DNA from: an uncultured Alphaproteobacteria bacterium
GTDB taxonomy: Bacteria; Pseudomonadota; Alphaproteobacteria; RF32; CAG-239
Assembly: GCA_944390275.1 (NCBI GenBank)
Contig: CALXPL010000003.1
Span: 18,373 to 82,372 of the forward strand
Reading direction: 5' to 3'
DNA: 64,000 nucleotides
The position numbers and the translations under genes are program-made. Of the stretch, positions 11,401-58,972 are shown one piece after another; the stretch's first letter is position 1; each line of letters begins with the position of its first letter. The notes under the pieces were generated by a model. It ran no database searches. It was not told the origin of the DNA and was given only the letters and a program-made list of their open reading frames with translations.

Positions 11401-11584
11401 GTTCTATGGTGTAATCGTTTAATTTTCCTATTTCAAATTCTATGCGGAGGCTGTTTTTTTCTTGTAAGCTATGGACTGCGGATTGTACAGGAGTAACTGT
11501 TGAAAAAAACAACAAAAAGATTATTGCGATATGGTATCGTAATATTTGTTGAATAAACTTCTTTGATAACACAATCAAATGCAA
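8486..11584 (-). CDS. Large secreted TPR-repeat protein (1032 aa). It may be a flagellar-motor accessory or scaffold protein.
   Basis: It has an N-terminal signal peptide, a beta-rich N-terminal half and a C-terminal half of TPR-like helical repeats (for example AIKDFSYGNLVQNEEARFWKNLSIAAL and YYNARRLEAMGYPLNALREY). It is the last gene of the fliL-fliM operon, 1 nt after the motE-like gene. Confidence 0.55.
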   Translation of the reverse strand: MHLIVLSKKFIQQILRYHIAIIFLLFFSTVTPVQSAVHSLQEKNSLRIEFEIGKLNDYTIEQQNKKVHLTFNQPVEHQLAETQERYPQILKKYEVSDDKKVFVIELTQDTAINHYREGNKLIINIPLSTPTETQKMNPEGLEGAELSYSANDKFSRFSFHFDTIPPYEIKQNAKNTQIIFKKPYKFATQNLINYPKYNQISFKQESPEKYIFTIPAITQRSFEQSNQIVIDVSPTEKSFKEEELTDISNAPLLKIRSLSFSWNKPVNIAAFKRGEHLWIVFDQYQNLDIAALNKEIIPLAKNLYQLPNPQATIIRLTPEKDIKVNLRKEGLLWIVDLYTGGKDMETEEIPIYTRYDALNHSYLYAPLNNVGNIISIFDPDIGDVISIVPTDTTNVGINHAYQYPDLDFIETINGLALIYKSDDIEITRGTNGINIRKLQGNLNISAELDELKRRNLLYGDNNIDKQFVMNIPAEILNKPFLEAVKLLEQDIITSDSQDTNKIRLREAGYFLNRGLGSNAIKILNSLEKEKASESESDTFHSMRGIANFLMRRYEEAIKDFSYGNLVQNEEARFWKNLSIAALQPNERSNEVISPYIYMLKNYPNEIRRRIALVAIEPALMANDDLAVQNYIEILRDSDGTDNKAAINYYNARRLEAMGYPLNALREYRNAADSSANYYSVLSRKKIIEIQKKTNTISLSKAAEEYEKLRYAWGEAEFKIKVLQELAEIYAQNKDYPQALKTLKEAKNLGLSKDSEAITRRMVKFFEDIYYYNQDDKMPAIQSLALYQDYHELAPQSQYYNEIVQKLADRLVAVDLLGRAYNILSHQMENGKLTANEAGTIGTRMALINLFNNEPEKAIENLDKTESDELSPSIVAHRRIIRAKALSGLEKTEEALELLKEDYSRNGILLKAEIFWNNQQWGDAADNIKYLIEKPQEGKALSQEQIQLILEWATALKKAGRETVIVRLKNTFEPYFATTPYISIFNVLTDTMETETIDLHNIDETINNIADFRNFAKIYTDSMQKSSLSETIK

Positions 11585-14682: not shown

Positions 14683-15369
14683 ATGTATATTTGGGTGGTT
14701 TTGGCTACTTTTATCGCTATCTTGTACGGCTTTAATTTGTCCGTGCGTTCCGATATGCGCCAAATTTATGTCGAGCCTCAAGCTGAAGCCGCTGTGAGTA
14801 AAATTGTCTTGCAGCATCGTGCCGCTGAGAAATTTTTTAATGATAAAGTTGCTCAACATATCGGGTATAGTGCCGGAAGGGTTAATGTACAAACTTTTGA
14901 GGATTTTTTACCTGTCGGTTTTGATCCTAATTATGATGATGACGGAAAAACTTATTATATTACAACTATGTATTGTTTGGATAAAAATTCAGACAAATTA
15001 TCTGCGGCTGCGGCAAGTTGTAATGCTGAAAATTCTCTGAATTATTTAATTACGTACGGTTGTGTGCCTCAACGTTGGAAAAGTATCAAAGGGGGACGAC
15101 CGGCTAATGATTTGGTTAATGCTATGCGTCGTGTAACAGGTAGAGGTTCTAATTTTGGTTATACTCAGCTTGTTGAAGCTGATGCCGAAAAAAATGATTT
15201 GGGGACGGAAATCGGTATTAATACCGGAAATAATCAATGGTTATCCGTGCCTCAATATATCATTTCTCAATCGGGTACCTTGGGTGATGAAAGTTTTGCA
15301 TCAATGTGCGGACTTGATGGCGCTTGTGCTTATTGTATGGCTTATATGACACCGTATGAACAATTGTAG
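14683..15369 (+). CDS. Hypothetical protein with an N-terminal hydrophobic anchor. It is the first gene of an operon with the giant prepilin-like protein.
   Basis: RBS GAGG 8 nt upstream of the ATG. N-terminus MYIWVVLATFIAILYGFNLSV. The C-terminus is Cys-containing (CGLDGACAYCMAY). The gene is divergent from fliL. Confidence 0.45.
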   Translation: MYIWVVLATFIAILYGFNLSVRSDMRQIYVEPQAEAAVSKIVLQHRAAEKFFNDKVAQHIGYSAGRVNVQTFEDFLPVGFDPNYDDDGKTYYITTMYCLDKNSDKLSAAAASCNAENSLNYLITYGCVPQRWKSIKGGRPANDLVNAMRRVTGRGSNFGYTQLVEADAEKNDLGTEIGINTGNNQWLSVPQYIISQSGTLGDESFASMCGLDGACAYCMAYMTPYEQL

Positions 15370-15378
15370 GGGGTGCGT

Positions 15379-18145
15379 TATGTGGTTTGATAAAAATATT
15401 GCAAAACAAGATGCCGGTAGCCTTATGATCGAGGCTTTGGCTATGTTGGCTTTAATTGCTATGGTGACTCCTATCCTTTATAAAAAAGCTGCGGAAAGAA
15501 CAACCGAGTTGCAAGATATTAATGCTGCCAGCCAAATGCGTGTGATGATTAAAGCTGTTGATGATTATTTAAGCGATAATTATCAAGATATTATGGCTGG
15601 ACGTGAAGTACAAAATAATTGTAAAGGCACAAAACCTAACTTTTCTGATTTTAAAAATGCCGGTGATAAAGTTACTCAAGTCGATATTCAACAACTTTGC
15701 GATTATTTACCTTACGGTTTCTTGGATAATGCCGGTAATGTACAAGGGAGTTATTCTTTTTCCGGTTATCAACTTGCGGTTAAAAAACATGATGCCGGAA
15801 GCGATAACAGTAGCGCTTCTTTAACCGGATTCATTTTAGCCAACCCTAAGGCTGATACCGGAATTCCTTTGTTGCGCGCTTCTCGTATTGCTTCTATGAT
15901 TGGTAGTAACGGTGGTTATACTCAAGGTGATAAGGCTAACGGTGTGCAAGGTATTTGGCGTATTGATAATGTCAAAAATGAATTGGGTATGGAGCCTAAA
16001 GCCGATGGTTCAATTATTGCTGCTTCTATTCAATCTATTACCGATGGAAGCGGTATTAATGAAAACGTACTCTATCGTAAAGCTATTCCCGGTAAGCCTG
16101 GCTTAAATACAATGGAAACAACCCTTAGTATGGGCGATCACAATATTGAAGATGTTAACCAGCTTATTATTTCGGCAAATAATCCTGCCGGAGGAAATCG
16201 CGATGAAGCTCTTTTAATTGAAAATGGCGGTGGTGCTAAAATTGATGGTATGCTTGATGCTGCCGGTGGAAATTTTCATGTTGATACTTCCGGTAATACG
16301 GATATTGGCGGAAATGCTAATATTGCCGGCGATGCTGTCGTCGATGGCAGTGCCGATATTGCTGGCGATACCGGTGTGGGCGGAAATTTACAAGTTGACG
16401 GAAAAGCTGATATTGCCGGTGATACTACAGTTGGTGGAAATTTGACGGTTAATAAGGATTCCGATTTAAAAGGTAATGTTAATGTCGGCGGAAATTTAAA
16501 TGTTGCCGGTAATACAACTTTGAATAAACTAACCGTAAATGGACAAAGCGATTTTAACGGACCGGTTAATATTAATAATCAGCTTACCGTTAATGCTGAA
16601 GCAACTTTCAAAGAAGATGTTTTGATGGAAAAAAATCTTACCGTTAATGGGTCTATTCGCACTCCGGATTTGCGTTCAAAAACGTTGCGCGGTGGTTTGC
16701 AAGGCGATGATTTTGATACCGGTACTTATGCTTTTACCGCTTATTGGAGTGGTGAAAATAAACCTTATGATGTTTACATCGGTGTTAACAATGAAGTGAA
16801 AGTCGGTGATGGTGTTGTTCACATCGGGCGCAATAACGAAGTTCAAGTTACTGATAATAAAATGGTTGCCGGTTTGAATAACGAACTAGAAGTTGAAACA
16901 ACAGGTTCCGGTACAGGTACAGTTAAACTTGGTCCAACATCTACGGCTAAAGAATTTATTGTTTCTAAAGGAAAAACACTCGTTGATAATGGTGTCTTTG
17001 AAGTGCAGACTGGGGCTAATACTTATAGTCAGATTTTAACTTCTGATAGTCGTGTCGATATTATGCGAAATGCGAATGACGGACAAAGTTTATTTTCAGT
17101 TGAAGATAATGCTAGTGCAACGCGTGGTTCGGTGCATGTTCGCAAGGGTATTCTTGAAGTCGCTTCCAAATATGATAGTATTGCAAGTGTTGAAAGCACT
17201 TCTGCCGGTTATGTGAAAGCTGACCGTTTTATTGATAACAAACCTTTGGAAAGTGCTGCTTTACCTCGGATGGCTGTGAATGGTTATACGGCCCAAGGTA
17301 CGGCTTATACAAATTATCAAATTAATCCTGCTTACACTTCCGTTATGCATGATATTAAATTAACCAGCCGTGGCGGGGCACGCTTGAGTGATATTTTACC
17401 CGACTTCATTAATAAAGGTATTTATGTCGTTGATAATACTTATAAAGAAAGTGTTCCTTATTGGGCTAATTTGAACCCAACTGTTTCCGGCGGAACAGTT
17501 CAAATTTCCGGTCAGTCCGGTTATGCTTGTAGTGATTATTCTTGTTGGACTTCTCCTTGGCTTGGTATTATTCCTTCACCGCAATGTCCTCCGGGATATG
17601 CTAAAGTGGTAACGATTACTCCTGCTGGTTGGGCTATGGCTCAAGCCGGTGTCCCTCCTTCCGGTTCGGAAAGTACGCGTAAAGATTTATTATATCTGAA
17701 CGTACCCAAGAATCCTAATGATTATGCTTCCGGTTCGGCTGATGCTCCTATGCCCTTGTATTTTCAGAAAAGTACTTGGTTAAGAGCTAATGTTTATCCT
17801 CATGGTTCCGGGGCTAATTTTAAAGGTTGGAGTGCCATTATGGGATTTATGTATCCGTATTCTTATTACAAAACTTATATTGATGACCTTGGTGTAACAA
17901 TTAACAAAGACGGAGCGACAAGTTCAAGTCAATGGGTCGTTTGGAATCTCTTTCCGGTCTTGCGTCGGCAACTTGAAGCCTATGTTACGGTTTATTGTTA
18001 CTTTGATCGAACAAACAGTGCATACAACAGTAAGTATGTTGATAAGTACGACCAGTTAAATAATTTCCGTCAAGGTTGGAATAAGGATTCAACTTATAAG
18101 ACCCGTCTGAATGATGAAACTTTGACCTTTACGGATCCTTGGTAG
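15379..18145 (+). CDS. Giant (922 aa) protein with a type IV prepilin-like leader and central beta-helix-like GGN/D-x-x-IAGD tandem repeats. A pilin-like adhesin or fibre subunit is the hypothesis.
   Basis: Start chosen at ATG 15379 with RBS GGGGG. N-terminus MWFDKNIAKQDAG|SLMIEALAMLALIAMV has Gly at -1, Glu at +5 and a 20-aa hydrophobic helix. Residues about 300-430 contain repeats GGNANIAGDAVVDGSADIAGDTGVGGNLQVDGKADIAGDTTVGGNLTVN.... The C-terminus is Cys- and aromatic-rich. Confidence 0.5.
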
Positions 18146-18276: not shown

Positions 18277-19050
18277 ATGAAAAAGTCTTTCTTTTTTTCC
18301 GCATTTTCTTGTCTGTTGTTGGCAAGTTTTTCTTCTTATGCTCAATTTAATAATTTACGTGAAGGAGTGCAGTCTTTTCAGCAAGAAAGAGACGCTTGGC
18401 GACGACAAGATACTACCGAAATAAAAGTTTTGCAAAATATGCGTGATTCTTTAGGTAATGCTGCCGTACTTAATGTTACCGATGCGGAACAAGTCTTTTG
18501 TTATCAAGTTGAAAATCGTTCCGCAGATTATTCGGGATATACCCTTAATGGCTTTGCTGTTACCGGTTTTTGCGGTATTATTAATGATAACTTGAAAAAT
18601 GTTTTGGTTACACAATTCTTAACAAATGCAGATAATTTTGATTTTACAACCTCTGAACAATGTGTTATTCGACCGAAACTTATGATTCGTTTTGTTCGTG
18701 GTGTTGATATGACAGATGTCTTGATTTCTGCTCCTTGCTATTCTGTTGCCTTTTATTATGCCGGTAAAGTTAAGGCTTATAATTTTAAACCCGGTGGTGA
18801 GTTGTTGGATACGATGGTTACTTCTTTTGATGCTCAAAAACGAGATTTCATTTCTCCGACTCTTTTGAATCAAATGTTGCCAATCGGTGTTCCTCAAACA
18901 GTTGAACAGCAACAGCTCGTGCGTAAAAATTCTCAACCTATTCGTAATTGGGAAATGGCAAAAACTCCTGAAAAAAATTCTGCTTCCTCTCAATCAACAA
19001 AAAAAGAAACTACTCATGGGTGGAATAAGTTAAAGGTTAACATTAAATAG
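18277..19050 (+). CDS. Hypothetical secreted protein.
   Basis: Signal peptide MKKSFFFSAFSCLLLASFSSYAQ. No domain recognised. Confidence 0.45.
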   Translation: MKKSFFFSAFSCLLLASFSSYAQFNNLREGVQSFQQERDAWRRQDTTEIKVLQNMRDSLGNAAVLNVTDAEQVFCYQVENRSADYSGYTLNGFAVTGFCGIINDNLKNVLVTQFLTNADNFDFTTSEQCVIRPKLMIRFVRGVDMTDVLISAPCYSVAFYYAGKVKAYNFKPGGELLDTMVTSFDAQKRDFISPTLLNQMLPIGVPQTVEQQQLVRKNSQPIRNWEMAKTPEKNSASSQSTKKETTHGWNKLKVNIK

Positions 19051-48643: not shown

Positions 48644-49354
48644 TTATTCTTTGCTCTGTTTTCGTGCTGACCAAAGTCCTATTTCAAATAATAAATAGGT
48701 CGGTATGGTCAACATAAGTTGGCTGACAATATCCGGCGGGGTTAATATGCCGGCAATGATTAATATTCCGACAAAAATGTAAGAACGTTTGTTTTTAACG
48801 CTTTCATAAGATGTGATATTAAATCGGATTAAAGAATACGTAATAATCGGAAATTGAAACATTAAACCAAAAATTATTGAAAGCATTAGAGCTAAGCCAA
48901 TAATGTTTGAAATTCCGAACATGGCTTTAATTTCCGAAGTGGAAAAACTTATGCCGAAGTTGATGATTAACGGTAAGATAAAAAAGAGGCAAAATAAAAC
49001 CCCGATAATAAACAATGCTGATGAACTGAATACAATCGATTTTATAAATTTTCGTTCATTTTCATATAAGGCAGGAACGACAAATTGCCAGATTTGTCGG
49101 GCAATATAAGGAAAACAACATAAAAAATCTAAGACAACGGCAATTTTTATTTGCAGGATGAAGACTTCCATCGGAGAAAAATAGTTCAGAGAAACATTAT
49201 TTTTTCCAATCATAATTTTTATTAAGCAATCCATGAAATAGGGTGCAACCAAAAACAGCGGAATCAACCCAATTCCCAGCGCAACAAAACATCGTATTAA
49301 TGTGGAACGCAATGCTTCAAGATGTGTTAGCAGACTTTCGTCTTTATCTTCCAT
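48644..49354 (-). CDS. tatC: Twin-arginine translocase subunit TatC.
   Basis: 236 aa with six TM helices and TatC family motifs. It overlaps the tatA stop. Confidence 0.85.
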   Translation of the reverse strand: MEDKDESLLTHLEALRSTLIRCFVALGIGLIPLFLVAPYFMDCLIKIMIGKNNVSLNYFSPMEVFILQIKIAVVLDFLCCFPYIARQIWQFVVPALYENERKFIKSIVFSSSALFIIGVLFCLFFILPLIINFGISFSTSEIKAMFGISNIIGLALMLSIIFGLMFQFPIITYSLIRFNITSYESVKNKRSYIFVGILIIAGILTPPDIVSQLMLTIPTYLLFEIGLWSARKQSKE

Positions 49355-49566
49355 TATTTCTTCTCGGATTTCTTTTCTTCTGCTTCGGCGGCTTTTTGAA
49401 CGCTATCTTTTAAATCTTGTGCTTCGTTTTGCAACATTTCTTTCGCTTTTTTGTATTCATATTGGGCTTTGCCCAAGGCTTTGGCTAATTCCGGAATACG
49501 TTTTCCGCCAAAGAGTACTAATACAACTATTAAAATCAGCGCAATTTCTGTTAATCCTAATGACAT
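49354..49566 (-). CDS. tatA: Twin-arginine translocase subunit TatA/E.
   Basis: [34 protein letters not shown]: a TM helix followed by an amphipathic helix. 70 aa. Confidence 0.85.
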
Positions 49567-49578
49567 TTCTTTCTCCTT

Positions 49579-50853
49579 TTATAACAATTTTTGTTTTTCT
49601 ACTGCCACAATCTCTATTGCTTTAACCGGACAAGCCTTTTGACAAGCCCCGCAACCGATGCAGATTTCGGGATTGACTTTGGGAAAAGCATCTCCCTCTT
49701 TACTGATGGCTTCTTTGGGGCATTTCATGACGCATAAACCGCATTTGACACATTTTTCTTCATTAATTTGTGCCAGAGCGATTTGTGTCTTTTGCTTTTG
49801 TTCTAACGAAATTTTGGCAATAGCTCCCGAAGGACAAACCTCTGAACATTTATGACAATTATAATCGCAAAAACTATCTTCATAGTCAATATAAACCGTT
49901 GAATGTTCTTCATCGGCTTTTTTGATGATTTTCATGGGGCAGTTTTGTACGCATAGATTGCAGTTCAAGCACCGATTGGCAAAATCTTTTGCAGATTCTG
50001 CACCGGCTGGTAATATGGCTTTTTTGATTTTGGCGGCTATATTTTTGCTCAAAATGATGCCGCTTTTAATACCTGCCGCCAAAACAACCAAAGCCGTACC
50101 GCCAATAAGGAGTTTTCTTCGATTGGGGTTGAAGGAAACTTTTTCTTTGGGCTTTATGCCGTAATGAATCGCTTGTTTGGGGCATTTATCCAAACATTTT
50201 AAGCACTTGACACAAGTTTCATTATCTACAATTTTGTTTTTGAAATCAATACAACCGCTTGGACATTTTGACGCACAACTGCCGCAAGATACGCATTTCT
50301 CTTTTTCGATATAAATTTTATTTAAACTGCATTTGGAGATTAAGCCTAAAATGGCTCCGACCGGACAAATATTGGTGCAGAAAAAACGTCCCTTAAACCA
50401 GACCAGAGCGACTAACAAAATTAAAATTCCACCACCAAGATATGCTCCAGATATCGCTGAACCAAACAGGGTGTAGGGGTCTATCAGGCGAATCAAATAA
50501 ATTGTTCCTCCGATTAAAGTTCCGAAAACCACGGCGGCAAGAAAATATTTATACGGATAATTTTGTTGCGGTTTTCCTTTGCGGCGAAAGAGGCACGTTA
50601 GCAATTCTTGATATAAGCCCAGAGGACACAATGTTGAGCAATAAATTCTTCCTAAAAGAAAGGTCAGTAGAAAGTTTCCGGTTAACAGTATTATACTAAA
50701 TAAGCTGAAGTCTATTAACGCTCTTTGTCCTAACGCTATGATTTGTATATTAAAAATTTTCAAGGGATAAAAAATACCCAAAAAGGCAAGAATAGTTAAA
50801 ATTGCCATTAGTATTGCAAAAATTCGGCAAAAATAAAAAGTGGTTTTGTTCAT
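49579..50853 (-). CDS. Membrane-bound polyferredoxin, NapH-like. It has four to five TM helices and six [4Fe-4S] binding motifs.
   Basis: Start set at the internal Met (MNKTTFYF...) with RBS AAGGAAG, which avoids overlap with the flavodoxin stop. The N-terminal TM region carries a CSTLCPLG motif of the NapH/NosR type. The C-terminal region has six CxxCxxCxxxCP motifs: CVSCGSCASKCP, CVKCLKCLDKCP, CLNCNLCVQNCP, CHKCSEVCP, CVKCGLCVMKCP and CIGCGACQKACP. Confidence 0.7.
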   Translation of the reverse strand: MNKTTFYFCRIFAILMAILTILAFLGIFYPLKIFNIQIIALGQRALIDFSLFSIILLTGNFLLTFLLGRIYCSTLCPLGLYQELLTCLFRRKGKPQQNYPYKYFLAAVVFGTLIGGTIYLIRLIDPYTLFGSAISGAYLGGGILILLVALVWFKGRFFCTNICPVGAILGLISKCSLNKIYIEKEKCVSCGSCASKCPSGCIDFKNKIVDNETCVKCLKCLDKCPKQAIHYGIKPKEKVSFNPNRRKLLIGGTALVVLAAGIKSGIILSKNIAAKIKKAILPAGAESAKDFANRCLNCNLCVQNCPMKIIKKADEEHSTVYIDYEDSFCDYNCHKCSEVCPSGAIAKISLEQKQKTQIALAQINEEKCVKCGLCVMKCPKEAISKEGDAFPKVNPEICIGCGACQKACPVKAIEIVAVEKQKLL

Positions 50854-50863
50854 CAAATCTTCC

Positions 50864-51442
50864 TTATATCTTAAATCCCAAATCTTCAAGCCAGCTCGAA
50901 AGTCCGATACTCATGCTTCCGTATCCGCTCCACCCTGAAGAAACAACATCACAACCTTTGCATTGTGCCTTTATATCGGTTATGGTATTTTGTTTGCCGC
51001 CACCGCCGTGGGTGATGAACGGAATTACTTTTTTTCCGCTTAAATCATAGCTTTCTAAAAAACTGCTGACTTGCGGGGTAATTGTTCCCCACCAGTTGGG
51101 CGAACCAATGAAAATAATGTCATATTGATCGATATTTTCAACTTTAGTCGTTAATTTCGGTCGAAAACCCGATTGTATTTCTTTTTGTGCTTGTTGTGTC
51201 ATCGCGCGATATTCTTCGGGATAGCTTCCTTCGGCTTTAATTTCAAAAATTTCTCCGCCGATTTTTTTATGGATGGCATTGGCAATTTTTTGTGTGTTGC
51301 CGCTATATGAATAATAAGCCACCAAGATTTTTTTGTTTTGTGTATCCATTTTTTCTTCCATTTTTGTTTGTGCCATCAGTCGGTAGCCGGAAAATACGGC
51401 TATCGCCAAAATTATAATTCCTAAAATCAAATATTTATTCAT
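50864..51442 (-). CDS. Flavodoxin-family FMN protein with an N-terminal signal peptide or anchor.
   Basis: Hydrophobic N-terminus MNKYLILGIIILAIAVFSG, followed by flavodoxin motifs ILVAYYSYSGNTQKIA and IFIGSPNWWG. Confidence 0.7.
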   Translation of the reverse strand: MNKYLILGIIILAIAVFSGYRLMAQTKMEEKMDTQNKKILVAYYSYSGNTQKIANAIHKKIGGEIFEIKAEGSYPEEYRAMTQQAQKEIQSGFRPKLTTKVENIDQYDIIFIGSPNWWGTITPQVSSFLESYDLSGKKVIPFITHGGGGKQNTITDIKAQCKGCDVVSSGWSGYGSMSIGLSSWLEDLGFKI

Positions 51443-51453
51443 TTTATCATCCT

Positions 51454-52692
51454 TTATGCTTCAAAAGTTTTGGCAACTTCCTTCATCCATTTACTAATCT
51501 CAATATGTTGCGGGCAATTTTTTTCGCAAAGTTTGCAACCGATACACTGCGAGGCTTTGCCGTGTGTCTTTATCAAATTGGCATAATAAACGGCTTGAGC
51601 GTTGAAAGGTTTATCGCCTCGTTCTTGTTTTTCGGCATTGTATAAAGCAAAATAATCCGGAATGGCGATTTTCATCGGGCAGGCTTCAACGCAATATTTG
51701 CAAGCCGTGCAAGGAATTGTGATTTCATCATGCAAGGTTTTAACGGCGGTTTCAACAACTTTTAATTCCTGTTGCGTCATGGGTTTGAAGTTTTGCATAT
51801 AAGAAGTGTTATCTTCAACTTGTTCCCTATTGCTCATGCCGCTCAAGACCATCATAACACCGTCCAAGGATGCCGCGTAACGAATTGCCCAAGAGGCAAC
51901 CGACATATTGGGTTCGGCATTTTTGAAGATTGTTTCCACTTTTTCCGGAACAAGAGCCAAACTTCCGCCTTTAACCGGCTCCATAACAATAACCGGTTTG
52001 TTATATTTTTGAGCCACTTCATAGCATTTGCGTGATTGAATACTCGGGTTATCCCAATCGATATAGTTAATTTGTAATTGTACAAACTCAACTTCCGGAT
52101 GCTCTTTTAAAACTTCTTCCAAAAGCTCTGGGCTATCATGGAAGGAAAATCCGATATGCTTAATTTTTCCTTCTTTTTTCTTGTCGGCTACAAATTTGAA
52201 ACTATCATATTTGCGTGCATTGCCGATGGTGTTGGCATTAACATTGTGTACGAGATAATAGTCAAAATAGTCCAAACCGGTTTTTTCTAATTGTTTATTG
52301 AATATTTCTTCTTGGTGTTCTGCACTTTTGAGCATACCGATAGGAAGTTTGCTGGCAACGGTAAACTTATCTCTCGGATGACGCTCAACCAAAGATTTTC
52401 TCAAAGCATTTTCACTTTCATAGCCCATGTACATCCACGCCGTGTCAAAATAGGTAAAACCTCTTTCCAAAAAAGTATCGACCATTTTATTTAATTCATT
52501 ATAATCAATGGAAGTTTGGTCTTGCGGGTCTTTTAACGGTAAACGCATAAAGCCGAATCCAAGTTTGTTTTTATTATTGATTTGTTTTTTTACGGCTTCG
52601 GATACGGGAATCGTATCTGCTAATGTTAATTTGGGAAGTGCCGATAAGGCAAAAGCGGCTAAAGTACTCATTAAAAATTCGCGTCTGTTCAT
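51454..52692 (-). CDS. Tat-exported aldo/keto reductase fused to a C-terminal 4Fe-4S dicluster ferredoxin domain.
   Basis: Twin-arginine signal [28 protein letters not shown] core ([11 protein letters not shown]...). C-terminal motifs [12 protein letters not shown] and [12 protein letters not shown]. Confidence 0.75.
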
Positions 52693-52766
52693 GGAATGCT
52701 CCTGTAATAAGTTAACTTTTGTAAAGTATAATTTTTAGAGTGTACTCAAAGTCAAGAATTTTTTAT

Positions 52767-53225
52767 TTAATCATCATCATTTTCAAAAACTTCTATTTTG
52801 GCATTAAATCCGCCTTTGTATGCTGACAAATTTTCCAGTCCTCTTTCTATTTGTCCTAATTCTATCAGATTCTTATCAAGATAATCTCCGTGGTCTTTAT
52901 AAAAGAAACCCCAGTTGCCCCACGGAACGTAAATAAACATCTTTCCGGCAGAGGCAATCATGCCGCGAGGAACGTTATTTAAAGATAAAGGTCTTGAAAA
53001 TTTTGATATTTTTTCTTCTCCGGCAAAATCAATAAATTCAAAATTTGTAGGAAGCATCTTTATAAATTGTTCTGCTGCCGAATTATCAGCCATTCGGACA
53101 ATGATTTCTTTTTGATTTTCTATTGTCAGCTTAATTTTCATTACATTTGTATCCTGTATGTTTTTTCCATAAGATATTGAACTTATCAGATTAAATAAAA
53201 TTAACAAAACAACCCGTCTTTTCAT
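52767..53225 (-). CDS. Secreted cyclophilin-like-fold protein of unknown function.
   Basis: Signal peptide MKRRVVLLILFNLISSISYG. About 130-aa mature domain; no family recognised. Confidence 0.35.
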   Translation of the reverse strand: MKRRVVLLILFNLISSISYGKNIQDTNVMKIKLTIENQKEIIVRMADNSAAEQFIKMLPTNFEFIDFAGEEKISKFSRPLSLNNVPRGMIASAGKMFIYVPWGNWGFFYKDHGDYLDKNLIELGQIERGLENLSAYKGGFNAKIEVFENDDD

Positions 53226-53230
53226 AAAAC

Positions 53231-54085
53231 TTATTCCTCATAAATGGGTTTATAATTTTCAATATCGGCGTCTTTAATCAAATTGATGGTTGTCATGGCG
53301 TTGGCCAGTCCGATATACGGAATGGCTTGAACCATAGCGGCTAAAAGTGTTTCTTTATCATTTCCGGCTTTTATGGCTCCAACCACATGAGCACTTAGTT
53401 GTTTTTCTGCTCCCAGGGTTGTTAAAATGACTAGAGATAACAACTCTCTCTGCTGAATGGATAAGCCGCCTCTGGTATAAAAATCACCAAAACAAAAAGT
53501 CGTCAGAGTATTGGGGACAACATCTTTATAAATATCGGGTAAAGATGCCATGGCTTTCTTGACTTCATCACCATAAAGTTGATTTTGAATTTCCAAACCC
53601 TTTCCATAACGGTTTTCATCAGTTGTTGCAGAAACATTGTCAAGCGGCAGCTTTATTCCTCTTTCTTTTGCCACTTCGTTAAAAACCCCAATGGCATTAA
53701 GGGTACGCGGAAAACCGATAAACGGGGCACATTGATAAATTGCTTCTCTGATTTCAAGAGGAGAATTGCCAACATTAAGTGCCGCATTGATATGAGCTTT
53801 GAGCTGAGGTAAAGTTTGTAAAGTTGATAAAGCCACAACCGTAATAAGCTCTCTGTCCTTAGCTGTTAAGTTTCCGCTATGGAATACTTCTCCAAAAATA
53901 TTACGTTGTAAAATTTCCATAAATTCCGGATCGGTTGGACTTGGTGTTCGTTCTGCTTGAAAGAGCTCTTTATAAACGATATCTGCTTTTTCTGCTCTGG
54001 TCATTGTTTTTTCCTCCGCCTGAACATTATTAAAACCCATTGCTAAAACCATAAGTAAAATGGTAATAAATCGTTTCATAAACAT
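53231..54085 (-). CDS. Secreted protein with two tandem domains of the carboxymuconolactone decarboxylase (AhpD-like) family.
   Basis: Signal peptide MFMKRFITILLMVLAMGFNNVQA. Two CMD-like halves (…GNSPLEIREAIYQCAPFIGFPRT… and …GNDKETLLAAMVQAIPYIGLANA…). Confidence 0.65.
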   Translation of the reverse strand: MFMKRFITILLMVLAMGFNNVQAEEKTMTRAEKADIVYKELFQAERTPSPTDPEFMEILQRNIFGEVFHSGNLTAKDRELITVVALSTLQTLPQLKAHINAALNVGNSPLEIREAIYQCAPFIGFPRTLNAIGVFNEVAKERGIKLPLDNVSATTDENRYGKGLEIQNQLYGDEVKKAMASLPDIYKDVVPNTLTTFCFGDFYTRGGLSIQQRELLSLVILTTLGAEKQLSAHVVGAIKAGNDKETLLAAMVQAIPYIGLANAMTTINLIKDADIENYKPIYEE

Positions 54086-54151
54086 CTCCGTAAAATGATA
54101 GCTTTAGCGTTATTATGATTGACTTTAGAAAATAAGTCTAATATTGTTTTT

Positions 54152-54178
54152 TTATAGAACTATAAATTTTACTTATAG
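54152..54178. promoter_or_regulatory. LysR-type regulator binding motif (T-N11-A palindrome plus an extra half-site) in the divergent intergenic region.
   Basis: TTATAGAACTATAA palindrome at 54152-54165 and a repeat TTATAG at 54173-54178, 10-35 nt upstream of the lysR start and upstream of the divergent operon. Confidence 0.4.
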
Positions 54179-54187
54179 TGAGAAATT

Positions 54188-55084
54188 ATGGAATTAACTC
54201 AATTATTACAATTCAAAACCATTGCCGAATGCAAAACGATGACAGCGGCAGCCGAAAAATTACATATATCACAACCGGCATTAAGTGCGGGATTAAAAAA
54301 ACTTGAAGAAGAACTCGGCATACAGCTTTTTGAAAGAAAGAAAAATAACATATCCTTAAACAAAGCAGGAGAAATGGCATTTACTTATACTTGTGCAATT
54401 TTAGGACAAGTTGAAGAAATGAAAAATGCTTTTCGCCAATATTCAAAAGAAAATAACAATATTAGTCTTGGCTTTTGCGACCCAGGGCCGATGCGCTTTG
54501 CAACACCGTTGTTGCAACAAGATAATCCAGAGCTGGAAATTTCTTCGGAAATCGTTGCTGATGATTCAATTTTGTTGAACGATTTGTTAAGTCATCGATA
54601 TGATGCTGTTGTATCTTTGGAAAAATTCGAATATCAAGATGTTATAAGTATTCCTTTTGCCAAAGAACAACTCATGTTATCTGTTCCTATCGGAGATGAA
54701 CTTGCAAATAAAACAAGCGTTAATTTGCACCTTTACCCAAATCGAGAATTTGCCGTATATCGAATGTATTGTGCTTATGAACAAAAAATGAAGGATTTTA
54801 TGGATTGGCTTGTTTCGTTGCCGCACGTTACTGTTTATACGGATTATTTTGTGTTTCGCCAAATGCTGGAACATAAAAATCTTTTGAGTTTTACTACCAG
54901 ATTAGTGCAATTTTATCGTCATGACGGCGAACGCGTCATCATTCCGTTAGAAGATGAGGGAATAACCGCAACTTATTGGTTTTCGTATATAAAAGACAAT
55001 AAAAAGCGTATGCAACCTTTCATATCATGGATTGAAAAAAATTCCTTAATGCTTTTAGGAACAGAAAGTCATAGCTATAAATAA
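54188..55084 (+). CDS. LysR-family transcriptional regulator.
   Basis: N-terminal HTH (LLQFKTIAECKTMTAAAEKLHISQPALSAGLKKLEEELGIQLFER) and a C-terminal substrate-binding domain. It is divergent from the redox operon. Confidence 0.85.
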   Translation: MELTQLLQFKTIAECKTMTAAAEKLHISQPALSAGLKKLEEELGIQLFERKKNNISLNKAGEMAFTYTCAILGQVEEMKNAFRQYSKENNNISLGFCDPGPMRFATPLLQQDNPELEISSEIVADDSILLNDLLSHRYDAVVSLEKFEYQDVISIPFAKEQLMLSVPIGDELANKTSVNLHLYPNREFAVYRMYCAYEQKMKDFMDWLVSLPHVTVYTDYFVFRQMLEHKNLLSFTTRLVQFYRHDGERVIIPLEDEGITATYWFSYIKDNKKRMQPFISWIEKNSLMLLGTESHSYK

Positions 55085-55172: not shown

Positions 55173-56240
55173 ATGTTAAAATTCATAACAATAGTTATTC
55201 TCTTAGTCATAGTTTTTTGTGGGTATGTCTTTAATGAAATTGGGAAATCTCCTTCTCAAGAAGAATTAAAAAAATATGAATCTTTACCCTATTTTAAAGA
55301 TGGTAGCTTTCAAAGTCCTCAAAAGTTGGTTTATGATTTTGATAATGTACGAAATGGTCCGGCAACTTGGTTTCGCTTTCTGAAATGTTCTCCTTTTGCA
55401 CCTAAACAAGAATTGCCAATGAAAAAATTAACCCGAGCAGATTTTAGCCAAAATGCTGATGATTTTGCGCTCTACTGGCTTGGACATTCTTCTGTCTTAT
55501 TAGAATTAGACGGTAAAAGAATCCTTTTCGACCCTGTTTTTGGAAATGCTGCGCCTCTGCCTTTTATGGTTCCTCGCTATAATAAAGCTCCGGTTAAAGT
55601 ATCTGAGTTACCGAAGATTGACATTGTCATTATTAGCCATAATCACTACGATCATTTGGAAAGAAAAACCGTGCAAAGTCTTAAAAATTCTCATTTTATT
55701 GTTCCCTTAGGTGTCGGTGCTGCTTTGCGAGGGTGGGGAATTAAACACGAAAATATTACCGAGCTTGGTTGGGGTGATAAGTACAGCAATCAAGGAATAA
55801 ATATTATTGCGGAAACTGCCGTTCATTATTCAAGTCGTGGTTTTGGTGATCGTAATAAAACTTTATGGAATTCTTATATCCTTCAATCTGGTGCGGTCAA
55901 TCTTTATTGGAGCGGCGATAGCGGCTACGGTACTCATTTTCAGAAAATTGGTAAAAAGTATGGACCTTTTGATTTAGCTGCTCTTGAAATTGACGGTTGG
56001 AATACCGGATGGCCAAATACCCATATGTTTCCTCAAGAAGTTATAAAAGTTACAAAAGAGTTAAAAGCTGAAAAAATTTTACCTCTTCATTGGGCTGTAT
56101 TTGATTTAGCTTTGCACCCATGGCATGAATCTATAGATATGATTCTTGAAGAAACTAAAAATACTCCCATAAAAGTTTTAACTCCATTAATGGGCCAGAA
56201 GATAAATCCTTTTGACACGAAAACTCAAAAATGGTGGTAA
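55173..56240 (+). CDS. MBL-fold metallo-hydrolase (NAPE-PLD-like) with an N-terminal TM anchor.
   Basis: HxHxDH motif SHNHYDHLE and downstream His/Asp ligands. 355 aa. Confidence 0.7.
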   Translation: MLKFITIVILLVIVFCGYVFNEIGKSPSQEELKKYESLPYFKDGSFQSPQKLVYDFDNVRNGPATWFRFLKCSPFAPKQELPMKKLTRADFSQNADDFALYWLGHSSVLLELDGKRILFDPVFGNAAPLPFMVPRYNKAPVKVSELPKIDIVIISHNHYDHLERKTVQSLKNSHFIVPLGVGAALRGWGIKHENITELGWGDKYSNQGINIIAETAVHYSSRGFGDRNKTLWNSYILQSGAVNLYWSGDSGYGTHFQKIGKKYGPFDLAALEIDGWNTGWPNTHMFPQEVIKVTKELKAEKILPLHWAVFDLALHPWHESIDMILEETKNTPIKVLTPLMGQKINPFDTKTQKWW

Positions 56241-56408: not shown

Positions 56409-56485
56409 TGGTGCCGACACACGGACTCGAACCGCGGACCCACTGATTACAAATCAGTAGCTCTACCAACTGAGCTATGTCGGCA
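56409..56485 (-). tRNA. tRNA-Thr (anticodon TGT).
   Basis: The reverse complement gives TGCCGACATAGCTCAGTTGGTAGAGCTACTGATTTGTAATCAGT...GGTTCGAGTCC...GTCGGCACCA. Anticodon loop TTTGTAA. CCA encoded. Confidence 0.75.
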
Positions 56486-56928: not shown

Positions 56929-57047
56929 TTTCTTTCTCCTCTTTCTCGTTTATAGGCTTCTTATTTTTTTTCGCAAGTTATTTTTTTGTTGTTTCTTTTT
57001 CTTTTTTTGTGATTATATATTTTATGTCTTACTTTATGGAGGTTTTT

Positions 57048-57668
57048 ATGAAATTTTTGAAATTCGTTTATCCTATTCTTGCCGCAACTTGGTTGGCGAC
57101 TCCTTGTTGGGCTCAAATGCAAAATTTACCCATTAATTCTTTGCCTCCCCCTAATATTTTTGGCGGTTTGGCTATCATGGAAGCTCTTAATAATCGCCAT
57201 TCTGGAAAGGATTTTAGTTACAATACTATTGATTACCAAACGCTTAGCGAAATTCTATGGGCAGCTTGGGGAATTAATCGCGATGATGGGAAACGTACCG
57301 TTCCAACAGCTATGAATCAACAAAATATGCAAGTCTATGTGTTGATGGCTAACGGAGCTTGGCTGTATAATGCTCAAAATAACAATATTGAACAAGTTAC
57401 GGCTCAAGATTTGAGAAGTTATTTACAAACTCAAGAATATACTCAAAATGCTCCGGTTTTCTTGCTTTATACAACAAATGGTAATCCTGCAGGAATGACT
57501 GATGCTATGCAGGCTGGGTCTATGTACCAAAATGTAGCTCTCTATTGTGCGGCTAAAGGATTAAATAATGTTGTGCGGGCCGATTTCCAAAAATCAGATT
57601 TAGCTGCTGCTCTTGGTATTGATGAAGATACTATCTTGATTTCTCAAGTTGTCGGCTATCCTATTTAA
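57048..57668 (+). CDS. Secreted nitroreductase-fold protein (SagB/ThcOx-like dehydrogenase family).
   Basis: RBS GGAGG 5 nt upstream of the ATG. Signal peptide MKFLKFVYPILAATWLATPCWAQ. Nitroreductase-like core (LWAAWGINR...RTVPTAMNQQNMQVYVL). Confidence 0.55.
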   Translation: MKFLKFVYPILAATWLATPCWAQMQNLPINSLPPPNIFGGLAIMEALNNRHSGKDFSYNTIDYQTLSEILWAAWGINRDDGKRTVPTAMNQQNMQVYVLMANGAWLYNAQNNNIEQVTAQDLRSYLQTQEYTQNAPVFLLYTTNGNPAGMTDAMQAGSMYQNVALYCAAKGLNNVVRADFQKSDLAAALGIDEDTILISQVVGYPI

Positions 57669-57805: not shown

Positions 57806-58972
57806 GTGATGAAGAGTATATCAAAGATACTATTACTGTCTGCTGTCGGCTTATATGTTGAGAGCGGAAATTTATCTTATGCGTCTTTTGAGGCAGCTTC
57901 ATTTCACCTCAAGTCTGGCATTCCCACTTTACACACACATCACACATACATACGCCATACTCAGGAAATACTCAACTTATCATCACACCTTTTTGATAAA
58001 GGAACAGATAAGGGTGTGAAAATTGCTTCGGTGTGTTTTATAACCGATGCGGGAAATTGTGGAGCAGACAAATTCGGTAATACGGAAACTCCTGACGGTG
58101 GCGGGGGCGGAGGAAATCCCGATGACCACGGCACTCCTGAGGAACTTTGTAAACAAGCCGGTTATACCAACACGCCTTGTCCCGATGGAAGCTCCCCTAC
58201 CTCTTATTGCCCTTATGACAGTTCTTATCATTCCGATTGTGAATGTTCTTCCGAATATAATCAAGTTTGTGATACGGCTCTTGGAGAACAAGGTGTTGGG
58301 AATCCTTGCGGCGGCAAATATAAAGAATGTTGTAATCTCTGTTCTGATTATAAATATACATCTATTCCCTCGGGTTATGTGAACAACGGTGAATGTCAAT
58401 CTTGTGATGGTAAAAAATACAAAATCAAATGCGACCCACAAAAATATGTTTTAGCACCAACCTGTGGAACATTGGGCGGCTATGGTAATACCTGTTCCGA
58501 TGATAGCGGAACTTATTATACTGAATGTAAATGTCCCAATAATTATGAATGGAGTTCCTCGCAAAAGAAATGCGTTTGTGCCACTTCTTTCAAATATTCT
58601 TGCTCCGGTACGGGGTATTCGGGAGGAGATGGGAATTCTTGCGACAACAAATATTCAAAATGTAAATGTGCAAACGGTTTTACATGGAATGCTTCGCAAG
58701 GGGCATGTGTTTGTTCAAGTTCTTATAAATACTCATGTAGTGGAACGGGCTATGCCGGAGGAGAGGGAACTGCTTGTAATGGCAAATATTCACAATGTAA
58801 ATGCGCAAGCGGTTATGTTTGGAATGCTTCGCAAGGAGCTTGTGTCTGTAATGGTTTAGACTGGTGTTCTCTTAACCAAAATTGTTCGGCTTGGGGTTAT
58901 GCCAAACAAAGTTGTGAGGGAAAATCCGTTAAATGTCCATTTAACATGAATTATGTTTATTGCCTCGATTAG
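57806..58972 (+). CDS. Secreted cysteine-rich repeat protein of 388 aa with about 56 Cys.
   Basis: Signal peptide and a Gly-rich linker (PDGGGGGGNPDD). Three tandem repeats of about 48 aa: C[VK]C...YSCSGTGY[SA]GG[DE]G..C..KYS[KQ]CKCA.G..WNASQGACVC. Confidence 0.5.
   Translation: MMKSISKILLLSAVGLYVESGNLSYASFEAASFHLKSGIPTLHTHHTYIRHTQEILNLSSHLFDKGTDKGVKIASVCFITDAGNCGADKFGNTETPDGGGGGGNPDDHGTPEELCKQAGYTNTPCPDGSSPTSYCPYDSSYHSDCECSSEYNQVCDTALGEQGVGNPCGGKYKECCNLCSDYKYTSIPSGYVNNGECQSCDGKKYKIKCDPQKYVLAPTCGTLGGYGNTCSDDSGTYYTECKCPNNYEWSSSQKKCVCATSFKYSCSGTGYSGGDGNSCDNKYSKCKCANGFTWNASQGACVCSSSYKYSCSGTGYAGGEGTACNGKYSQCKCASGYVWNASQGACVCNGLDWCSLNQNCSAWGYAKQSCEGKSVKCPFNMNYVYCLD

Follow-up and report, generated by a model that had tools for sequence, protein, structure and literature searches.

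A predicted Tat-exported aldo/keto reductase–iron-sulphur protein encoded with a fusion polyferredoxin and tatAC in uncultured gut Alphaproteobacteria

Organisation of the locus

The DNA analysed here, a 64-kb window (64,000 nucleotides, positions 18,373 to 82,372) of contig CALXPL010000003.1 from an uncultured alphaproteobacterium of the RF32 lineage (assembly GCA_944390275.1), contains an operon whose central genes encode an aldo/keto reductase (AKR) fused to an iron-sulphur (Fe-S) domain with two [4Fe-4S] cluster motifs, hereafter AKR-Fer4, together with a membrane polyferredoxin and the TatA and TatC components of twin-arginine translocation (Tat). We consider that uncultured gut Alphaproteobacteria probably use this locus to make an oxidoreductase module that faces the periplasm and is linked to the quinone pool. 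All positions are given in window coordinates, with the letter L and a number labelling related metagenomic loci.

Seven closely packed genes run along the minus strand from position 54085 down to 48644, encoding in this order a double-CMD protein, a cyclophilin-like protein, AKR-Fer4, a flavodoxin-like protein, the polyferredoxin, TatA, and TatC, with the gene for a LysR-family regulator diverging from them at 54188–55084 on the plus strand. The junctions from the CMD gene to tatC measure 5, 74, 11, 10, 12, and −1 nt, the 74-nt gap separating the cyclophilin-like gene from that of AKR-Fer4, the 10-nt gap separating the flavodoxin stop from the polyferredoxin start, and the last value reflecting a 1-nt overlap of the tatC start with the tatA stop.

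A first-pass annotation, made from the sequence alone, had proposed these minus-strand open reading frames (ORFs) and their domains, both of which were confirmed by Pfam and NCBIfam profile searches of the window ORFs. It described a block at 49354–54187 with no gap above 12 nt, which two junctions contradict, namely the 74-nt gap given above and one of 97 nt between tatC and a 154-aa ORF, and the interval itself omits both tatC and the 154-aa gene. This last ORF, which had been counted as a small secreted member of the block, has no domain match and occurs only in contigs of the window's own species; together with the 97-nt gap, this led us to reject it as a member of the system.

The exported AKR-Fer4 protein

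AKR-Fer4 (412 aa; 51454–52692, minus strand; Aldo_ket_red at 170.6 bits, with Fer4_9) begins with twin arginines at R3-R4 (MNRREFLMS), followed by a hydrophobic core and an AxA-type site, with cleavage predicted after A25. The twin arginines are retained in 116 of the 123 homologues that are at least 78% identical, and the remaining seven are start-codon miscalls or fragments, so that the textbook twin-arginine signal first proposed for this protein is well supported as a prediction. AKR-Fer4 is the sole ORF of the window with an N-terminal Tat motif. Across the wider family, represented by 150 sequences from clusters at 50% identity, a twin-arginine signal is found in only three others, each with a lipobox, with ~97% of representatives having no signal peptide of any kind and almost all starting ~40 residues later. 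Because so few other representatives carry this signal, export appears to be a derived trait that is rare in a family whose members are otherwise cytoplasmic.

The catalytic tetrad typical of the fold is present as D83, Y88, K115, and H149, and is kept in at least 106 of 111 family members, whilst the two CxxCxxCxxxCP cluster motifs lie at C328–P339 and C383–P394. These two motifs are invariant in the AKR-Fer4 family, as are GFSFH and MEPxK/RGG, the latter appearing here as MEPVKGG and containing residues M237 and K241. Canonical AKRs carry the motif ‘SN’ (IGVSN) at the position that contacts the nicotinamide amide. This Ser/Asn pair is not kept in AKR-Fer4, with H185 occupying the position of the Asn.

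An AlphaFold 2 model of the protein shows a TIM barrel with pLDDT values above 90 and a poorly modelled Fe-S domain. In a Foldseek search of the PDB with this model, all top matches were ordinary NAD(P)H-dependent AKRs; the library searched, which ends in April 2026, predates entry 9YEB, the structure of the nickel-pincer AKR NphT discussed below, and the search is therefore uninformative on the cofactor. No solved structure related to the whole fusion was found, with only ordinary AKR domains matched. Likewise, our literature searches for AKRs that act in the periplasm or are exported by Tat, for fusions of an AKR with an Fe-S domain, and for the combination of CMD, cyclophilin-like, AKR, and flavodoxin proteins returned nothing relevant, and no characterised member of the AKR-Fer4 family was found in the literature searched.

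Comparison with the nearest sister species gives a ratio of nonsynonymous to synonymous substitution rates (dN/dS) of 0.02 for the AKR-Fer4 gene (99% amino-acid and 94% nucleotide identity), with values of 0.03–0.21 for the other genes. All of the operon genes are thus functional and under purifying selection, with that of AKR-Fer4 among the most constrained, which argues that the protein works in the lineage of the window, whatever its cofactor.

The polyferredoxin and TatAC

The polyferredoxin (424 aa; 49579–50853, minus strand) is matched by two Fer4_5 stretches and by NapH/MauN and NapG models. Its start is most likely the ATG at 50853 and not the TTG at 50889, since the former is preceded by an AAGGAAG ribosome-binding site and is the choice of the gene callers on identical contigs. 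Four hydrophobic segments at residues 11–29, 49–67, 103–121, and 133–151 correspond to transmembrane helices TM1–4, CxxxCP motifs lie at residues 72 and 159, and six 4Fe-4S motifs follow at residues 187 and 214, predicted to be cytoplasmic, and at 295, 329, 368, and 398, predicted to be periplasmic. Five of these motifs are CxxCxxCxxxCP and one is CxxxCxxCxxxCP; the six motifs first described are therefore all present, with one of them differing from the form assigned to it. Between the two groups of motifs, residues RR245-246 in NRRKLLIGGTALVVLAAGIKSGIIL, followed by SKNIAAKIKK, form a twin-arginine motif, a weakly hydrophobic helix (TM5), and a Lys-rich stretch, with a crude insertion energy of +2.7 for TM5 compared with −4.0 to +0.1 for TM1–4.

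With residues numbered from the TTG start, the NapH/MauN model covers residues 67–243 and the NapG model PRK09476 residues 251–428 (57 bits), all scores lying below the equivalog cutoffs of NapH and NapG. The first-pass annotation of a NapH-like, hexa-cluster protein holds for the CxxxCP motifs and the number of clusters, and missed the C-terminal NapG half and the internal twin-arginine helix; its statement that no gene of the block resembles a named respiratory system does not hold, given the matches to NapH and NapG.

A NapH-NapG fusion polyferredoxin has been shown by reporter fusions to depend on both the Sec and Tat pathways (Tooke et al. 2017, eLife, PMC5449189), the criteria of such dual targeting being a TM5 that is weakly hydrophobic, that follows twin arginines, and that is itself followed by positive charges (PMC5449189). 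Judged by these features, the protein encoded here is a NapH-NapG fusion of the dual Sec/Tat type and a predicted Tat client in its own right, because its internal twin-arginine motif precedes a weakly hydrophobic TM5 as in the family of Tooke et al. Its predicted periplasmic domain would be positioned to meet the exported AKR.

Both tat genes were identified by profile, tatA at 49354–49566 (minus strand; PF02416 at 58 bits, TIGR01411 at 51.4 bits) and tatC at 48644–49354 (minus strand; PF00902 at 191.8 bits, TIGR00945 at 165.6 bits, above its cutoff). The earlier proposal that export of an Fe-S enzyme already loaded with its cofactors accounts for the linkage to tatAC holds, with AKR, polyferredoxin, tatA, and tatC genes co-directional in most of the 80 species described below, and is strengthened by the presence of two operon proteins, not one, that would need Tat.

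Variation at the tat genes was seen in two loci of the window species from different samples, L004 (12877–13588) and L005 (12865–13576), where tatC shares a +1 frameshift in a run of T ~233 nt into the gene, splitting it into ORFs of 97 and 80 aa with the adjoining genes intact; genuine variation between strains, phase variation, or an assembly error in the homopolymer could each account for it. A further candidate for dual targeting lies near the same tat cluster in L058 (4215–5330) and nine other related loci, which encode a membrane Metallophos protein with twin arginines before a late N-terminal helix (...KVRRLSAAILLVVVILFAA...), resembling the YkuE-type proteins that form the third dual Sec/Tat class of Tooke et al. 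Additionally, ~12–21 of the 80 loci (e.g. L021 9254–9889, L047 817–1758) carry more Tat-signal proteins beside the polyferredoxin-tatAC-AKR core, namely FMN_red/Flavodoxin_2 proteins (MNRRKFLK...) and DUF362 proteins (MKRRDFFK...), which suggests that the tat locus serves a small set of periplasmic redox clients.

The first-pass annotation also raised membership of a nap or nos system whose other genes might lie just outside the block. Neither the large window ORFs nor the called genes of the ±10 kb flanks include NapA, NapB, NapC, or Nos genes, the ten largest other ORFs of the window encoding UvrB, Lon, MalQ, AspRS, KdtA, FtsA, RNase D, and similar proteins. Membership of nap or nos is accordingly rejected, there being no catalytic or cytochrome genes of these systems among the large ORFs of the window or in the flanks.

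Conservation in related gut species

Conservation was assessed in a census of 80 loci, one genome per species, in which the AKR is 76–99% identical and neighbours were counted by profile. Nearly all of these loci come from metagenome-assembled genomes (MAGs) labelled as uncultured Alphaproteobacteria, Rhodospirillales, ‘Acetobacter sp. CAG:977’, and similar, obtained from the guts of humans, ruminants, and other animals. These labels fit the RF32 group and agree with the alphaproteobacterial-like backbone recognised at the outset. Identical or near-identical loci also occur on long human gut metagenome contigs.

The AKR is accompanied by the polyferredoxin in 56 loci, by tatA in 52, by tatC in 51, and is followed by a flavodoxin with a signal peptide in 46. 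These core genes are always co-directional, in the order polyferredoxin-tatA-tatC-AKR-flavodoxin or AKR-flavodoxin-...-polyferredoxin-tatA-tatC, so that what emerges from the comparison of synteny is conserved linkage and not scattered homologues. An MBL-fold hydrolase gene is present in 22 loci, with CMD, LysR, and cyclophilin-like genes in only 14, 10, and 8 respectively; the latter three are peripheral accessories of a subset of species and stand outside the conserved core. Two unrelated lineages of metagenomic origin, L090 and L103, have a polyferredoxin gene directly upstream of a Tat-signal AKR-Fer4 gene, with no tatAC nearby.

The block had been thought to look acquired relative to its surroundings. 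Its GC content of 0.35–0.39 is not distinct from that of the flanks (0.32–0.39), and the core is found clade-wide in the 80 species; recent horizontal acquisition is rejected on the basis of this conservation and the lack of a compositional break.

lar genes in sister species and the hydride cofactor

In L007, the locus of the closest sister species, the flavodoxin and polyferredoxin genes are separated by a 3.4-kb segment that encodes LarB, LarC, LarE, and a membrane protein, with the lar proteins scoring above the NCBIfam equivalog cutoffs (LarB 291 bits, LarC 192 and 145 bits, LarE 257 bits). Within the census, the AKR loci include larB in 40 cases, larC in 38, and larE in 37, with the membrane-protein gene in 36, all of them always on the same strand, directly after the AKR or AKR-flavodoxin genes. 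Gene contexts centred on LarC read LysR and, divergently, CMD, cyclophilin-like, AKR, flavodoxin, LarB, LarC, LarE, membrane protein, polyferredoxin, TatA, and TatC, an otherwise collinear operon whose arrangement is the same in the sister species and in a common, more distant species. No LarA-like protein or other known user of the pincer cofactor recurred among the neighbours within ±10 kb. Outside the clade, cytoplasmic AKR-Fer4 genes stand beside LarC-LarE-LarB in L114 and beside polyferredoxin-LarE-LarB in L120, and near LarB-LarC with flavodoxin-type genes in L141.

The membrane protein of these loci (L007 14516–15247; 241–249 aa, 243 aa in L007) always follows larE and is polytopic, with a signal peptide and an HxxxGPDH-like motif that we take to be that of HupE/UreJ proteins. 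Neither Pfam nor NCBIfam gave a match at a threshold as lax as E = 5; its position and this motif make the protein a candidate for a nickel permease belonging to a family not yet described.

LarB, LarC, and LarE make the nickel-pincer nucleotide, and mining of lar neighbourhoods without LarA yielded 427 AKR-family neighbours (Semersky et al. 2026, Nat Chem, PMC13524815). Amongst these, NphT binds a nickel-pincer mononucleotide (NPMN) in its TIM barrel, with H144 ligating the nickel, K200 acting as covalent thioamide tether, and I199 stacking against the ring, and acts on sugars (PMC13524815; PDB 9YEB); 34% of lar-linked AKRs have both the His and the Lys, and 40% the His only (PMC13524815). 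A shortened cofactor cavity that shuts out the AMP moiety is a further criterion for such enzymes. The paper makes no mention of ferredoxin, Fe-S, Tat, or the periplasm (PMC13524815).

For comparison with AKR-Fer4, residues 29–185 of 9YEB were recovered from phmmer alignments, and NphT homologues of 60–82% identity were gathered for a profile alignment with hhalign. By both methods H185 in the motif IGFSFH aligns with NphT H144 in IGITGH, and H185 is invariant in 110 of the 111 AKR-Fer4 representatives. Furthermore, M237 aligns with the ring-stacking I199, and the catalytic Asp and His also align. We lean slightly towards a nickel-pincer nucleotide, in preference to NAD(P)H, as the hydride cofactor of AKR-Fer4, because the periplasm lacks an NAD(P)H pool, the operons of sister species contain lar genes, and the protein carries the His of the NphT type.

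Several observations weigh against this assignment. No larB, larC, or larE was found by tblastn in the 64 kb of the window, and about half of the related loci have no lar genes within 10 kb. K241 pairs with the tethering K200 only across a three-residue gap, in the poorly aligned C-terminal half of the profile alignment; M237 is immediately followed by an invariant Glu, and the position of K241, a Lys in all close relatives, is an Arg in distant AKR-Fer4 members. H185 is invariant across the family, yet in 80 sampled metagenomic loci most AKR-Fer4 genes are not linked to lar, so this His may have another role. The conserved C-terminal motif LSGMS...N resembles the dinucleotide-binding region of ordinary AKRs, and would fit NAD(P) or the nickel-pincer nucleotide NPAD.

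A search with LarC placed all sister-species LarC proteins in the operon context and also recovered standalone larBCE genes in other gut contigs, none of them attributable to the genome of the window. In the related gut contigs L176–L178 (7318–10026), a standalone larB-larC-larE operon follows TspO, among tRNA synthetase and NAD synthase genes, with no AKR or LarA within 8 kb. The existence of standalone larBCE implies that lar genes can be unlinked from their user, and they may lie elsewhere in the genome from which the window derives.

Proposed mechanism and alternative explanations

In the mechanism proposed here, Sec would insert TM1–4 of the polyferredoxin and Tat would insert TM5, thereby placing the NapG-like domain with its four [4Fe-4S] sites in the periplasm. 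AKR-Fer4 would be folded and loaded with its clusters and hydride cofactor in the cytoplasm and then exported by Tat, with the adjacent tatA and tatC serving both clients. We regard this topology, and the export of both proteins, as very probable. The quinone pool would exchange electrons with the AKR's Fe-S domain by way of the polyferredoxin clusters, a path suggested by the conserved adjacency of the genes and by how NapGH works, and functional coupling of the two proteins is likely. The Sec-exported flavodoxin-like protein would be a likely converter between one- and two-electron steps. A nickel-pincer nucleotide, whether NPMN or NPAD, would be made in the cytoplasm and would provide a second reason for the use of Tat. 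The LysR, double-CMD, cyclophilin-like, and MBL-fold proteins would be lineage-specific accessories, probably sensing or processing the substrate.

Electron flow could run in either direction. Menaquinol has a potential of ~−74 mV and simple carbonyl/alcohol couples lie near −200 mV; because menaquinol is a weak donor for such couples, the reduction of simple carbonyls by quinol is thermodynamically doubtful. Redox potentials would slightly favour oxidation of a sugar or alcohol in the periplasm with menaquinone as acceptor, the alternative being reduction of a high-potential carbonyl by quinol, and we consider the chances of the oxidative direction to be even. As a speculation, the MBL-fold hydrolase, with its weak lactonase-like match, would fit a dehydrogenase-plus-lactonase route. 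The first-pass annotation had envisaged an electron path from the quinol pool to a periplasmic, carbonyl-reducing AKR; the architecture of this redox module holds, whilst the carbonyl reduction is doubtful and the larBCE genes of sister species point to a different cofactor.

The exported AKR could instead carry tightly bound NAD(P)(H) through Tat, with the lar genes of sister species serving another protein or being chance neighbours. We give this a modest chance of being correct. The lack of lar genes in the window and in about half of the related loci, the occurrence of standalone larBCE operons without a nearby AKR in related gut contigs, the intact D83/Y88/K115/H149 tetrad, and the conserved LSGMS...N motif are all consistent with a nicotinamide cofactor, as is the nearness in fold to ordinary NAD(P)H-dependent AKRs, although a Foldseek library predating the release of 9YEB could not have favoured NphT. 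However, the nicotinamide-amide position is occupied by a His, as in NphT, and in ~40 species the operon includes the lar genes, placed immediately after that for the AKR or flavodoxin, while its recurrent neighbours include neither a LarA-like protein nor any other known user of the pincer cofactor. Moreover, hydride exchange between Fe-S clusters and NAD(P) requires a flavin or a metal as mediator. It is also highly improbable that the adjacency is meaningless, with tatAC standing beside its main client, the polyferredoxin, and the AKR nearby by chance: whilst no partner of the AKR is recognisable in 8 of the 80 loci, and core partners are missing altogether from 7 of the 42 full-length loci, co-directional adjacency is seen in 56 of the 80 species in several gene orders, the pairing recurs in the unrelated lineages L090 and L103 without tatAC nearby, and the AKR is the only predicted N-terminal Tat substrate in the 64-kb window.

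Two further explanations accept the coupling of polyferredoxin and AKR and assign it a different purpose or electron source. In one, the operon would be a detoxification system induced by LysR, with quinol as electron source, the polyferredoxin and flavodoxin as carriers, and the AKR as a periplasmic reductase of reactive aldehydes or ketones. Stress regulons commonly include CMD/AhpD-like proteins and AKRs. The divergent LysR gene with its conserved box would suit such induction, and NapGH modules normally carry electrons outward from quinol, but LysR, CMD, and cyclophilin-like genes accompany the AKR in only 8–14 of the 80 species compared with 51–56 for the polyferredoxin and tatAC, the CMD protein lacks a CxxC peroxidase motif, menaquinol (~−74 mV) is a poor donor for simple carbonyls (~−200 mV), and the dN/dS of 0.02 for the AKR is more typical of core metabolism; we therefore consider this explanation unlikely. 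In the other, the polyferredoxin would be a transmembrane wire leading from a low-potential cytoplasmic donor to the AKR, and not a quinol dehydrogenase, in which case carbonyl reduction would become favourable. The two cytoplasmic 4Fe-4S motifs are retained, and the flavodoxin and FMN_red genes adjoining cytoplasmic AKR relatives in L141 and L148 suggest low-potential partners; in contrast, the only characterised relatives, NapGH, are quinol dehydrogenases, and no gene for a cytoplasmic donor is conserved at the locus, making such a wire quite unlikely.

Accessory proteins, regulation, and neighbouring genes

Three operon proteins besides AKR-Fer4 and the polyferredoxin are predicted to be exported, each with a Sec-type signal. 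The flavodoxin-like protein (50864–51442, minus strand; Flavodoxin_4, PF12682 at 95 bits) has a signal peptide (...YRLMA/QT) or anchor, with a hydrophobic N-terminus and AxA-like site in 36 of 41 homologues. The double-CMD protein (53231–54085, minus strand; PF02627 in two stretches, 117 bits) carries the signal ...NNVQA/EEK, with a hydrophobic N-terminus in 15/15 homologues; it is PcaC-like at 103 bits, below the cutoff, and its sequence contains no CxxC motif. A signal peptide is likewise present in all nine homologues of the Cyclophil_like2 protein (52767–53225, minus strand; PF18050 at 84.5 bits). The conservation of these predicted signals supports the earlier view that the CMD and cyclophilin-like proteins are secreted and that the flavodoxin has a signal peptide or anchor.

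The divergent regulator (298 aa) has HTH_1 and LysR_substrate domains, and the intergenic region that it shares with the CMD gene contains a candidate LysR box at 54152–54165, the T-N11-A-type dyad TTATAGAACTATAA. As first annotated, this palindrome is present in the shared region; it is unique in the window, with 0 expected from 100 shuffles, and its outer arms, TTAT-N6-ATAA, are kept in L007–L012. The intergenic region is conserved in six species, including TTAT-N6-ATAA and both hexamers of a promoter-like TAGACT-17-CATAAT (54112–54140, minus strand; consensus match only) 5′ of the CMD gene. A consensus scan gave a second promoter-like sequence, TTGACT-16-AATTAT (52728–52755, minus strand), within the 74-nt gap before the AKR-Fer4 gene. 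Promoter and terminator scans yielded counts not above shuffled expectation, and the sites given here are candidates only. Control of the CMD and cyclophilin-like genes by LysR is plausible from these sequence features.

Downstream of the LysR gene, an MBL-fold hydrolase (55173–56240, plus strand; Lactamase_B_2 at 121 bits) is predicted to be membrane-anchored or exported, with a hydrophobic N-terminus in 20 of 21 homologues, and its gene is often directly upstream of that of the AKR in related loci. Its match to UlaG-like lactonases is weak (49 bits, below cutoff), and it may be an accessory hydrolase. A tRNA-Thr(TGT) gene (56409–56484, minus strand) lies between the hydrolase gene and a crcB-like gene, a variable spot at which EamA, acetyltransferase, and MFS genes are inserted between crcB and the hydrolase gene in L004 and L005.

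Further along the plus strand, a nitroreductase-family protein (57009–57668; PF00881 at 63 bits), whose gene is kept beside the locus in the window species, has an apparent Sec-type signal, MKFLKFVYPILAATWLATPCWAQ, which is unusual for an FMN enzyme, and a 388-aa secreted protein (57806–58972) is very rich in Cys and Gly, with repeated C-x-C and GxxC segments. Elsewhere in the window are a 929-aa ORF without a Pfam match (15356–18145, plus strand) and a 1032-aa ORF with a weak TPR match only (8486–11584, minus strand). In L174 (1587–5387), from a common related species, a larger LysR-controlled block stands ahead of the AKR-Fer4 gene, comprising a cupin, a cyclophilin-like protein, a second AKR (365 aa, without Fe-S), a CMD protein, an extra TatA-like protein, and a Tat-signal FMN_red protein.

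Implications

To our knowledge, the nickel-pincer cofactor was known only in LarA-type racemases until 2026. We suggest, tentatively, that AKR-Fer4 may be the first exported nickel-pincer enzyme and the first to be wired to an electron-transport chain. If so, a periplasmic enzyme combining nickel-pincer and 2x[4Fe-4S] centres would couple hydride chemistry on a sugar, alcohol, or carbonyl substrate to the passage of single electrons, which would reach or leave the quinone pool through the Tat-inserted NapH-NapG polyferredoxin. It would represent a new class of respiratory enzyme, widespread in gut Alphaproteobacteria. The pincer cofactor would then be able to support net redox catalysis tied to membrane energetics, in contrast to NphT, the first AKR-fold user of the cofactor, which has no net electron flow, and by extension the large cytoplasmic AKR-Fer4 family of anaerobes would consist of ferredoxin-linked nickel-pincer enzymes. 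A function would also be provided for the AKR-Fe-S family, for orphan NapH-NapG fusion polyferredoxins, and for the lar genes of genomes that lack LarA, and a metabolic trait would be defined for an abundant, uncultured gut lineage. The system would join a polyferredoxin of the NapH-NapG type with dual Sec/Tat targeting to an AKR of the nickel-pincer type, both of them recently described and little explored, a combination that we found in no paper in the literature searched.

Comparison with known systems

The polyferredoxin, likened by features of its sequence, closely follows that of Tooke et al., with four N-terminal TM helices bearing CxxxCP, two cytoplasmic 4Fe-4S sites, a NapG-like domain with four sites, and a TM5 of weak hydrophobicity with twin arginines immediately ahead of it and positive charges behind it. 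The example of Tooke et al., from the delta proteobacterium MLMS-1, was studied for targeting only, whereas here a partner can be identified by conserved adjacency, with tatAC directly downstream. The same two modules are found in the NapGH of E. coli and Wolinella, in which a membrane NapH and a periplasmic, Tat-dependent NapG lead from quinol to an exported catalytic subunit; in contrast to NapGH, the modules are fused here in one polypeptide, and the partner is an AKR-Fe-S protein, not a molybdoenzyme.

NphT shares with AKR-Fer4 the AKR TIM barrel, a His at the position of the nickel ligand, a hydrophobic residue at that of ring stacking, and orthologues of the AKR embedded among larB, larC, and larE without LarA nearby. 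However, NphT is a soluble, cytoplasmic monomer of 290 aa that shuttles hydride between sugars and has no external electron partner, whereas the AKR described here has a Tat signal, a 2x[4Fe-4S] domain, and polyferredoxin and flavodoxin partners; its tethering Lys is not securely present, and its similarity to NphT is remote (E = 9e-5, with ~20% identity in the profile alignment). The cytoplasmic AKR-Fer4 fusions of anaerobes, annotated as ‘predicted aldo/keto reductase-like oxidoreductase’, have the same two domains, the best representative being 56% identical, but most are without polyferredoxin, tat, or lar linkage (80 metagenomic loci sampled). The glucose-fructose oxidoreductase of Zymomonas mobilis is exported by Tat with bound NADP. 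Whilst it differs from AKR-Fer4 in its GFO/IDH/MocA fold, its lack of Fe-S clusters and of a membrane electron partner, and its internal ping-pong redox chemistry, it provides a precedent for the export of a hydride-transfer enzyme with a tightly bound nicotinamide-type cofactor.

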